Assembly: GCA_018971305.1 (NCBI GenBank)
Contig: JAGXBC010000002.1
Coordinates: forward strand, 144,046 to 208,045
Source: Patescibacteria group bacterium
GTDB lineage: Bacteria > Patescibacteriota > Minisyncoccia > UBA6257 > 2-01-FULL-56-20
Reading direction: 5' to 3'
Length of the DNA: 64,000 nt
This document shows, one piece after another, positions 22,838 to 62,433 of the stretch (its first letter is position 1; each line of letters opens with the position of its first letter). Below the pieces are notes generated by a model. That model made no database searches and was not told the DNA's origin. It saw nothing but the letters and a program-made list of their open reading frames with translations. Position numbers and translations under genes: made by a program.

Positions 22838-23215
22838 ATGGAAGGCGATATACCGAATATAATGCTTTGTCCTCAATGCCATCAGCTCGTAAAGCCGGAA
22901 TTTTATTTTTGCCCTAACTGCGGGGAAAACCTGCGCAAGACTCCGCTTTCCACTTCGGTTGGTACGCAGATATGGATGTATTTTCTTAGTATTATCATGC
23001 CCTGGGTAGCGTTTATTTTTATCGGCTACTGGCACGGTTTGAAATATCTGCGCTCGCAGGATACGAAAACAAAACAGATCGGCTTGATTGCCACGATAAT
23101 TCTTGTTGCCTCTACGCTTTTCGCTATTTGGATTTCCATTGTTTGGGTGCAGAACATATTACAAACAACGATGAGCGACCTGAATGGGGTGGGTAGTGGA
23201 CTCGGCGGTTTTTGA
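22838..23215 (+). CDS. Zinc-ribbon membrane protein (hypothetical)
   Basis: CPQCHQ...CPNCGENL zinc ribbon followed by two TM helices. Confidence 0.5.
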   Translation: MEGDIPNIMLCPQCHQLVKPEFYFCPNCGENLRKTPLSTSVGTQIWMYFLSIIMPWVAFIFIGYWHGLKYLRSQDTKTKQIGLIATIILVASTLFAIWISIVWVQNILQTTMSDLNGVGSGLGGF

Positions 23216-23333
23216 TTTGAAAGTAAAATATCTTTTTGTTATCCTATACTGGACATTCCGCGGTATGGTTTTCAGCCAGCCGGAACGAGAAATAGCGATA
23301 ACGAGAAAAATTGAAAACTAAAAACGCTCAAGC

Positions 23334-23694
23334 TCCGCGGTAGCTCAACGGTAGAGCGGCTCCCTGTCAACAAGCATTCGATAGGGCTCAGTATTGATAC
23401 TGAGCGATAGTCGAAGTATCAAAAGGCAGCCATGCGTAGTAATGCACATAGGAAAAATCGGGCTAATTCGGGGAACCCCTTTATGAAATTAAAGGGCAAT
23501 CCCGAGCTAAATTCCGAAACGAAGTTTAGGACTTGTCCTCGGCTTCGCTGAAGGATAAACGTGTAGAGACTATATACCCGAATCCCAAAACGCCTGCCTG
23601 CCGGCAGGCAGGGGATATGAGATAGTCCAGCCCTTTCGGTAACGGAAGGAAAACTGTAAGGAGAAGGTTCCTGGTTCGAATCCAGGCCGCGGAG
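23334..23694 (+). tRNA. tRNA-Asn(GUU) interrupted by a group I intron; exons 23334-23367 and 23657-23694
   Basis: 5' exon tccgcgg-ta-gctc..gagc-g-gctcc-ctgt; 3' exon taa-ggaga-aggtt-cctgg ttcgaat ccagg-ccgcgga-g; acceptor stem perfectly paired (U1-A72), discriminator G73; reconstituted anticodon loop cuGUUaa. Confidence 0.7.
23368..23656 (+). other. Group I self-splicing intron (289 nt) in the tRNA anticodon loop, inserted after U35
   Basis: Core elements in canonical order: P-like ctaattcggggaa, Q-like caatcccgagc, R-like gtagagactata, S-like gagatagtcc; 5' exon ends in U; intron ends in G (omega G, 23656). Confidence 0.65.
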
Positions 23695-61922: not shown

Positions 61923-61988
61923 TACTCTATTGTATCACAAATAAAAACCGATAGGTCCCATTTATGACGCTTGTATAGAAATTTTTTG

Positions 61989-62060
61989 TGCCCTCGGAGG
62001 GAATTGAACCCCCATCTCTTCCTTAGGACGGAATAGCTCTATCCGTTGAGCTACGAGGGC
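61989..62060 (-). tRNA. tRNA-Arg(CCU)
   Basis: Reverse complement folds as gccctcg-ta-gctc..gagc-t-attcc-gtCCTaa-ggaag-agat-ggggg ttcaatt ccctc-cgagggc-a; acceptor stem perfectly paired. Confidence 0.7.
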
Positions 62061-62122
62061 GAAAATTGTCAGAACTTCATTTTTTTTATACTATACAGGA
62101 GATATAAATATTAGTTAAGCGG

Positions 62123-62193
62123 GGGCCTATAGTATAGTGGCAGAACGCCTCCATGGCATGGAGGAGGTGGGGGTTCGATTCCCCCTAGGTCCA
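62123..62193 (+). tRNA. tRNA-Ala(GGC)
   Basis: gggccta/taggtcc acceptor stem with the G3:U70 Ala identity pair, discriminator A73, anticodon loop auGGCau, T-arm ggggg ttcgatt ccccc; D-stem has one mismatch. Confidence 0.7.
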
Positions 62194-62336
62194 CATAAAG
62201 AGGAATTGAACGCCGGAGCCAAAATTTCCAGTAGGAAATGTTAGCGAGGCGGTGCCCAGACCGCGCACGACCTGCCGGACGTCAGGCGGGACGGCGGCTA
62301 GCGCGAGAGTCGCGGGCGATTCCCCCTAGGTCCACA
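62176..62336 (+). repeat. 20-nt direct repeat cgattccccctaggtccaca (62176-62195 = tRNA-Ala 3' end; 62317-62336) flanking a 121-nt GC-rich segment
   Basis: Exact 20/20 match read directly; the second copy cannot form a T-arm and is a non-functional 3' duplicate. Confidence 0.6.
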
Positions 62337-62338
62337 AG

Positions 62339-62426
62339 GGTGGGGTGGCCGAGTGGTTGAAGGCGACGGTCTTGAAAACCGTTATACCCCAAAAGGGTAT
62401 CGTGAGTTCGAATCTCACCCCCACCG
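62339..62426 (+). tRNA. tRNA-Ser(UGA)
   Basis: ggtgggg acceptor, 3-bp D-stem (class II), anticodon loop cuUGAaa, long variable arm, T-arm gtgag ttcgaat ctcac, discriminator G. Confidence 0.8.
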
Positions 62427-62433
62427 CAGGGTC

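Follow-up and report, generated by a model that had tools for sequence, protein, structure and literature searches.

What interrupts the tRNA gene at positions 23334-23694 of the 64-kb stretch of Patescibacteria DNA analysed here (contig JAGXBC010000002.1; the whole stretch is hereafter called the window), which amino acid does that gene serve, and can its two halves still give rise to a working tRNA? The original prediction was of a tRNA-Asn(GUU) gene whose anticodon loop is split by a 289-nt group I intron. Our analysis indicates that the element is very probably a functional self-splicing group I intron without an open reading frame (ORF), located between U35 and U36 of a Patescibacteria tRNA-Asn(GUU) gene, and that its removal yields tRNA-Asn.

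Identity of the gene and placement of the splice sites

The gene and all of its features lie on the plus strand. Exon 1 (23334-23367) provides the 5' strand of the acceptor stem, the D-arm, the 5' strand of the anticodon stem, and the loop nucleotides C32 U33 G34 U35, ending in a CTGT that does not vary among 115 + 103 related split genes. Exon 2 (23657-23694) begins TAAGGAGA and provides U36 A37 A38, the 3' strand of the anticodon stem, the variable loop, the T-arm, the 3' strand of the acceptor stem, and the discriminator G23694. Each of the tRNA parts named in the original prediction was found in place—the 7-bp acceptor stem (TCCGCGG/CCGCGGA), the D-arm, the T-arm (CCTGG-TTCGAAT-CCAGG), and the discriminator. 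The insert (23368-23656) ends in ...ACTG and sits between anticodon positions 35 and 36, with the junction CTGT/C...G/TAA (slashes mark exon boundaries). Joining the exons in silico produced a 73-nt tRNA-Asn(gtt) that ARAGORN folds as a perfect cloverleaf, with GGCTCCCTGT/TAAGGAGAAGG at the spliced junction and GGCTCCCTGTTAAGGAGAAGG across the joined exons. An exon 1 ending in U35, an intron ending in a terminal guanosine (omega-G), and a spliced loop reading CUGUUAA had all been anticipated, and all agree with this product. No CCA is encoded at the 3' end of exon 2, so its addition after transcription would be required.

That the insert is a group I intron was borne out by the Rfam check that had been proposed for it. 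The RF00028 (Intron_gpI) model matches 23381-23649 over model positions 1-253 of 253 with 68.0 bits (E 4.1e-15), compared to a gathering score of 50 bits, and this is the sole Rfam match in the window besides three ordinary tRNAs near 62 kb. A family hidden Markov model (HMM), trained on 60 relatives that have no ORF and not on the window itself, likewise gave a single nhmmer match in the window (23417-23662, 86.2 bits, E 3e-26, HMM positions 9-249 of 251). The E-values of these two models rule out a chance origin, and a junction-aware pattern had no matches in 100 shuffles of the window. The intron also lacks a homing-endonuclease gene, as originally claimed: no sense-strand ORF of at least 50 aa is present in 23368-23656, and the antisense ORFs have no Pfam match.

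Standard annotation tells a different story. Without its intron mode, ARAGORN finds no tRNA at 23334-23694; with the -i option, it calls tRNA-Thr(tgt) i(33,289), placing both boundaries two bases further 5', which is possible because CTGT is present at both junctions. Taken at face value, this call would make the gene a tRNA-Thr(UGU) with an intron at 33/34. Under these boundaries, however, the last nucleotide of the intron would be C instead of G, and the U·G pair of helix P1 and the helix P9.0 would no longer flank the splice sites. The Asn boundaries give a 5' exon with a final U and an intron with a final G; they place U23367 in the P1 U·G wobble and G23656 just after the covarying P9.0. 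The exons are also those of tRNA-Asn: the spliced tRNA is 83-94% identical to the spliced tRNA-Asn of related split genes, and, in a 28-Gb database searched with the threshold relaxed to 10, its only full-length matches in E. coli genomes were annotated tRNA-Asn genes (74% identity, at a weak E of 0.1; the E. coli search returned no match at E 1e-3 or better). Moreover, Nakagawa et al. (mSystems 2026, PMC13011429; preprint July 2025, 10.1101/2025.07.03.662931) documented the identical two-base miscall, in which ARAGORN and tFind misread such genes as tRNA-Thr(UGU) at 33/34, and demonstrated self-splicing at 35/36 in vitro by sequencing the ligated product. The Asn reading is thus the better supported one, on account of the exon-end U and intron-end G, the P1 U·G pair, the adjacency of P9.0 and G23656, and the similarity to tRNA-Asn; the splice-site rules (omega-G, U·G, and P9.0) refute the 33/34 alternative, to which we assign a negligible probability.

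The locus is base-for-base identical in three assemblies of independent read sets and is therefore no assembly artefact. Proteins encoded in the flanking parts of the window are identical to proteins of NCBI metagenome-assembled genomes (MAGs) labelled Patescibacteria group bacterium; the host is thus a member of the Patescibacteria, in line with the earlier impression of a genome resembling the Candidate Phyla Radiation. ARAGORN, Rfam, and the family HMM found no second tRNA-Asn in the window, and the split gene is probably the only tRNA-Asn gene of the cell, given that intron-bearing tRNA-Asn genes are usually sole copies, that several complete genomes contain no tRNA-Asn besides the split one, and that intron-bearing and intron-less copies of the same anticodon seldom share one genome (PMC13011429).

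Secondary structure, covariation, and the proposed splicing pathway

The 5' strand of P1 (23364-23368), comprised of exon nucleotides C-U-G-U and intron nucleotide C1, pairs with G23429-G23425 to form C-G, U-A, G-C, U·G, and C-G, with the 5' splice site after U23367. The partner strand belongs to the internal guide sequence G-GCAGC (23425-23430), whose G23426 makes the U·G wobble with U23367; the insertion of 23369-23424 in the P1 loop puts this guide 57 nt into the intron. Next comes the P2 hairpin (23432-23449), which has one C×A mismatch, a stem that covaries in the family, and a GUAA tetraloop (23439-23442) of the GNRA type, the G and A of which sit in family-invariant columns. The 5' strand of P3 (23458-23462) pairs with 23577-23581 in a pseudoknot with P7. 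P4 (23467-73 / 23500-06) encloses J4/5, P5 (23477-83 / 23490-96), and J5/4, with both P4 and P5 covarying, and is followed by a P6 domain (23507-23562) of two hairpins (23507-29 and 23533-58) with a local fold energy of -16.0 kcal/mol. The 5' strand of P7 (23566-23573) consists of G23566, a bulged A23567, and G23568-U23573, and pairs with the 3' strand (23622-23628). The 3' strand of P3 (23577-23581) comes directly after P7, with no P7.1/P7.2-type insert—an arrangement that we refer to as the compact core. P8 (23583-23615) has an outer helix (23583-86 / 23612-15), which covaries in the lineage, and an inner one (23592-98 / 23603-09). Finally, the two pairs of P9.0 (A23629-U23655 and G23630-C23654) enclose P9 (23632-38 / 23643-49), capped by a GUAA tetraloop, and are immediately followed by the omega-G (23656) and the 3' splice site; this G is invariant in parsed relatives.

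The P, Q, R, and S elements recognised in the original prediction fit this model, P and Q being the two strands of P4 and R and S those of P7, with all pairs formed. A fold from P1 to P10 around the splice sites held in part: every helix from P1 to P9.0 forms, with the exception of the C×A in P2 and a G×A at the first pair of the anticodon stem (27:43), and a P10 helix is not apparent. By analogy with established group I structure, G23568-C23627, next to the bulged A, is the predicted guanosine-binding pair.

Two other pairings were considered and set aside. The exon sequence CCCUGU plus the first intron nucleotide could form a 7-bp P1 with GAUAGGG (23380-86), leaving a U-A pair at the splice site. 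We rejected this arrangement given that the guide GCAGC is family-invariant at 23426-30, that the base 5' of GCAGC covaries with intron nucleotide 1, and that the family HMM alignment starts there. For the 3' strand of P3, we discarded a MAFFT placement at GCCUG (23592-96) in the family alignment and preferred 23577-81, a strand that agrees with the closest relatives and shows covariation in the lineage. A separate observation concerns the inner P8 hairpin (23592-23609), GCCUGCCUGCCGG(C/U)AGGCAGG, which is near-identical in the window and in locus L157 and missing from the other members of the lineage alignment; this hairpin seems to have entered P8 as a discrete insertion.

Comparative evidence for the fold came from two alignments, one of 61 sequences from the family (A2) and another of 81 sequences from the window's compact-core lineage (A3). 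Run on the 61 sequences without the window model as input, RNAalifold recovered the exon-joining anticodon stem, P1, P2, P4, P5, P6, P8, P9, and the 2-bp P9.0 before the omega-G. In A2, 95.7% of cells were paired, compared to 67% in shuffles and 32-41% with slid partners, and the covariation score was 0.754, compared to 0.20 in shuffles and at most 0.13 with slid partners. The four exon pairs of P1—C-G, U-A, G-C, and U·G—were each present in 61/61 sequences, and the adjacent intron pair was never broken (AU in 28, GC in 17, CG in 10, UA in 3, GU in 2, and UG in 1). The same was true of both P9.0 pairs (AU in 50, GC in 10, and GU in 1; CG in 39, GC in 7, AU in 7, UA in 5, and UG in 3), while the GCAGC guide was invariant in 61/61 and 81/81 aligned introns. 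When the window model was projected on A3, 93.6% of cells were paired, compared to 79% in shuffles and 33-55% with slid partners. Here the only P3 pair left unfixed by the search pattern covaries without a single broken case (UA in 54, UG in 13, GC in 8, and CG in 6), and P8, P9.0 (again never broken, with GC in 42, AU in 23, CG in 13, and UA in 1), and one P4 pair covary as well. Covariation in P7 was impossible to see because the search patterns fixed that helix.

From this structure, splicing would be expected to follow the usual group I route. The gene would be transcribed as a 361-nt precursor, in which the intron would fold into a canonical core of P4-P6 and P3-P7-P8-P9 domains with the P3/P7 pseudoknot. 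The guide (23425-23430) would pair with exon nucleotides C32-U35, the U·G wobble at U35 marking the 5' splice site, and an exogenous guanosine bound in P7 would attack after U23367. The terminal G23656, placed by the 2-bp P9.0, would then replace the exogenous guanosine in P7, and the free 3'-OH of U35 would attack after G23656 to join the exons, which the anticodon stem (23360-63 / 23660-63) may hold together in place of P10. Such alignment of exons by the anticodon stem in tRNA introns goes back to Zaug et al. 1993, as cited in PMC13011429. The product would be a normal tRNA-Asn with the loop CUGUUAA. By analogy with its homologues, in one of which an omega-G to C change blocks exon ligation (PMC13011429), the window copy presumably self-splices.

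Several features weigh against this reading. A P10 helix is not apparent; P1 is short, with four exon pairs and one intron pair, and is split by a 56-nt insertion absent from most relatives; P2 has its C×A mismatch; and pair 27:43 (23359/23664) is a G×A mismatch. The intron is also divergent in sequence: a BLAST search against 112 genome relatives gave short core matches only, and one against the validated tRNA-Asn intron gave no match with an E of 1e-3 or below. Furthermore, splicing activity is known from homologues, and the view is limited to 64 kb of the genome, outside of which a second, uninterrupted tRNA-Asn is possible. The P1-loop insertion, the five-pair P1, the divergence, and the limited view of the genome could together indicate a decaying relic, that is, an intron that no longer splices in a tRNA pseudogene, with a functional uninterrupted tRNA-Asn elsewhere. 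On the contrary, the core helices and family-invariant positions are all intact, and the changes in the closest relative (locus L163/L207, 78% identity over 354 nt) preserve pairing, the insertion included. Lineage-wide covariation backs the window model, the exons form a perfect cloverleaf, and in published genomes the intron-bearing tRNA-Asn is usually the sole copy, all of which make decay of the locus quite improbable. As for the anticodon stem, we observed that 27:43 is mismatched in 71/81 tRNA-Asn genes of the window's lineage (A3 column pair 1/426).

Relatives of the intron and the hosts that carry them

The original prediction regarded a tRNA-Asn host as unusual, a view that has been overtaken by published surveys. 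Williams 2020 (bioRxiv 10.1101/2020.01.27.920355) increased the number of bacterial tRNA settings known to bear introns from 4 to 21, including the class ‘Asn.4Ug’ cited by Nakagawa et al., who themselves reported 15 split tRNA-Asn genes in 95 complete Patescibacteria genomes, most such introns being without homing-endonuclease genes (PMC13011429). The window intron shares with the Patescibacteria tRNA-Asn introns the host gene, the 35/36 site, the phylum, the CTGT/...G/TAA junction, the GCAGC guide, GNRA loops on P2 and P9, a P7 about 27 nt from the omega-G, and the ARAGORN miscall as tRNA-Thr. We did not find its sequence among the table entries of Nakagawa et al. that we examined, and it differs from the published tRNA-Asn introns in its 56-nt P1-loop insertion. 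It also lacks the element of about 35 nt between P7 and the 3' strand of P3 that is seen in the validated tRNA-Asn intron (GCA_016700035.1) and in other Saccharimonadia tRNA-Asn introns among the entries examined in Table S3; the tRNA-Asn introns labelled in the portion of Table S5 examined (Nitrospirota and WWE3) are of subgroup IA1 and likewise have this insert.

The closest tested relative of the window intron is a validated tRNA-Asp intron. This 196-nt intron, located at 35/36 of the tRNA-Asp(GUC) gene of GCA_001029755.1 (Microgenomatia), self-splices in vitro (PMC13011429). It has the same compact core, collinear with that of the window through GGCTAATTCGGGGAA ... AATCCCGAGCTAAAT ... TGTGTAGAGACTATATACC ... 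AGATAGTCC, as well as the exon end CCCTGT, the guide GGCAGC, and the insertion site. The two differ in that the host of the former is tRNA-Asp, with an exon 2 that starts CAC, and in that the window adds expansions in the P1 loop (about 50 nt), P5, P6, and P8. There is also a resemblance to the classical IC3 tRNA introns of the Azoarcus and Anabaena types, which are small, ORF-less anticodon-loop ribozymes with exons aligned by the anticodon stem, with P3' directly after P7, and with similar P4 and P7 sequences. However, the classical sites are tRNA-Leu UAA 34/35, fMet/Ile2 CAU 33/34, and Arg CCU 36/37, compared to tRNA-Asn 35/36 here, and the P9 region, longer in the IC3 examples (GACCACAAAC...), is in the window a simple hairpin like that of the tRNA-Asn/Asp family. 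Small profiles scored the window core at 37.0 bits for IC3 (10 sequences) and 21.1 bits for the IA1 tRNA-Asn introns, and the whole intron at 44.0 and 41.2 bits, respectively; these are sequence profiles, unlike the subgroup covariance models with which Nakagawa et al. assigned the Patescibacteria tRNA-Asn/Asp introns to subgroup IA; they state that no Patescibacteria tRNA intron is IC (PMC13011429).

We estimated the extent of the family with two scans. The first covered one genome per species with a pattern comprising P7, its distance to the omega-G, and the start of exon 2, and gave at least 120 loci; exon 1 was recovered in 112 of the 120 listed, all of which splice in silico to tRNA-Asn(gtt) with CTGT/...G/TAA. 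As the BLAST search against these 112 relatives gave just short core matches, the second scan searched metagenomes with a pattern tailored to the compact core of the window, again giving at least 120 loci, with 103 of the 120 listed being complete split tRNA-Asn genes at 35/36 with the same junction. Over both scans, this amounts to at least 215 split tRNA-Asn loci sharing one junction, and the yield of at least 120 loci per scan indicates that the family far exceeds in size what has been published from complete genomes. The introns of the listed genome-scan loci are either about 206-361 nt or about 520-600 nt long, and the hosts, judged from record titles, are mostly Patescibacteria but also Acidobacteriota (Pyrinomonadaceae and Blastocatellia), Nitrospirota, Cyanobacteria, Omnitrophota, Elusimicrobia, and Planctomycetes, with binning errors possible. 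This spread beyond the Patescibacteria, examples of which include L006, L013, L018, L030, L036, L048, L064, and L072, agrees with Nakagawa et al. (PMC13011429). The window's nearest relatives among the listed genome-scan loci, L091 and L039, are labelled Nitrospirota and Planctomycetia, where binning errors are again possible.

Architecture varies within the family. In most members, about 35 nt separate P7 from P3', a segment that the window does not have; the compact architecture of the window is common to L091, L039, and the validated tRNA-Asp intron. The P6 domain of the window is expanded relative to most relatives, with homologous expansions in L148, L163, L181, L189, and L197. Three core architectures are found at the tRNA 35/36 site, and the same ‘site module’ of P1-P2 and P9 appears on at least three types of catalytic core there; in a tentative and, on balance, doubtful reading, this would imply modular exchange between introns. 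The 520-600-nt members (L004, L013, L017, L026, L029, L058, L097, L100, L216, L230, L131, L237, and L159) have an ORF of 100-135 aa in the P1 loop, with a reading frame that runs on through the guide sequence and P2. Of four such ORFs tested, those of L026 and L013 passed the Pfam threshold for HNH (PF01844), with L097 and L004 falling short of E 0.01, and the P1-loop ORF is present on both IA1-type and compact cores.

The metagenome scan yielded further observations. The compact core is also found in L127, L178, and L223, where exon 2 begins AAATCTGACGG and ends CACCACCA; these look like tRNA-Tyr(GUA) genes split at 35/36, a setting for which Nakagawa et al. list one case (PMC13011429). Four other loci (L125, L130, L166, and L224) have the 5' half of the compact core, from P3 to the 5' strand of P7, without the 3' strand of P7 (ATAGTC) within 200 nt downstream, and could be truncated introns or contain a large P8 insertion. 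In 20 of the 103 metagenomic split tRNA-Asn genes, including L154, L160, L162, L165, L167, L168, L171, L172, L185, and L186, the T-loop is GGTCCGA, with C replacing the near-universal U55 (pseudouridine 55).

Promoter and terminator scans of the locus gave matches no commoner than chance, and TypA was near split tRNA-Asn genes in merely 3-4 sampled loci, making synteny uninformative. Just upstream of the tRNA, a 45-aa ORF is called at 23184-23321 (1959-2096 of L001), overlapping the end of a zinc-ribbon gene. The MAG accession series MBU6500690 to MBU6500692 has a one-number gap between the two flanking genes, which suggests that a coding sequence was called in the tRNA/intron interval. The three ordinary tRNAs form an uninterrupted cluster at 61988-62427, with Arg(CCU) on the minus strand and Ala(GGC) and Ser(UGA) on the plus strand.

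The P1-loop insertion and the significance of the locus

The 56-nt segment at 23369-23424 is an insertion relative to the 60 relatives in the family alignment, with a fold energy of -18.5 kcal/mol. It has two alternative folds, a long hairpin (23374-23417) and a tandem-G·A hairpin (23398-23418). The closest relative, L163/L207, also carries it, with pairing-compatible changes, and its 3' half is present in L197 and L222. The HNH-type ORFs of the long relatives occupy the same site in the P1 loop. We searched for signs that the hairpin is a remnant of a lost HNH ORF, finding no similarity in sequence or reading frame to the ORF-bearing relatives, and for signs that it is a repeated element, finding no further copies in the window or in the loci of other genomes.

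The shorter hairpin corresponds to a module, [CT]TGAG[CT]-N2-5-[GA]TCGA[AG]G, that folds as a tandem-G·A hairpin and lies at 23398-23418 in the window. It is found in 16 of the 103 compact-core tRNA-Asn introns and in none of the 116 genome-scan introns among the loci listed, compared to about 0.02 expected by chance. Its location varies: it is in the P1 loop in the window, L163, L197, and L222, in the P5 loop in L128, L154, L186, L208, L215, L231, L232, and L242, and in P6 in L181, L189, L204, and L241. A tentative and, on balance, doubtful explanation is that the compact-core sub-lineage repeatedly gained the module, CUGAG-N-UCGAAG, in its P1, P5, and P6 loops and that in the window its duplication produced an inverted repeat of 44 nt, located within P1 between splice site and guide, where it could gate P1 as a mobile or functional unit.

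A related refinement, compatible with a functional intron, is that splicing requires a protein cofactor or particular conditions and that the P1-loop insertion modulates P1 and thereby the supply of tRNA-Asn. A stable hairpin breaks up the short P1 and might slow guide pairing or compete with it, and the exon sequence CCCUGU could alternatively pair with GAUAGGG (23380-86). The insertion is also conserved in the sub-lineage and holds the recurrent tandem-G·A motif, and regulatory roles of Patescibacteria tRNA introns have been raised as speculation (PMC13011429). On the other hand, compact-core relatives that lack the insertion are common, one such relative splices unaided in vitro (PMC13011429), and the site tolerates endonuclease ORFs, suggesting that it is merely permissive. 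We consider assisted or gated splicing unlikely. Were the module nonetheless to gate P1, whether through protein binding, through docking, or as a folding switch, splicing could be a point of control over tRNA-Asn supply in these reduced genomes.

Taken as a whole, the window intron is a new, somewhat divergent example of a published arrangement, and it opens no new question, since earlier work has already documented such introns, where they occur, and that they are active. It matters mainly for annotation: standard tools miss the gene or call it tRNA-Thr, such that the genome would appear to be without tRNA-Asn and completeness estimates based on tRNAs would be wrong, a point also made in PMC13011429. 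Beyond published work, the additions are modest—a larger family, three core architectures at one site, and a structured insertion where relatives carry an endonuclease gene. The locus also adds a divergent tRNA-embedded ribozyme from a highly reduced genome, and, if this is the sole tRNA-Asn gene of the cell, the decoding of all of its Asn codons would depend on RNA self-splicing.

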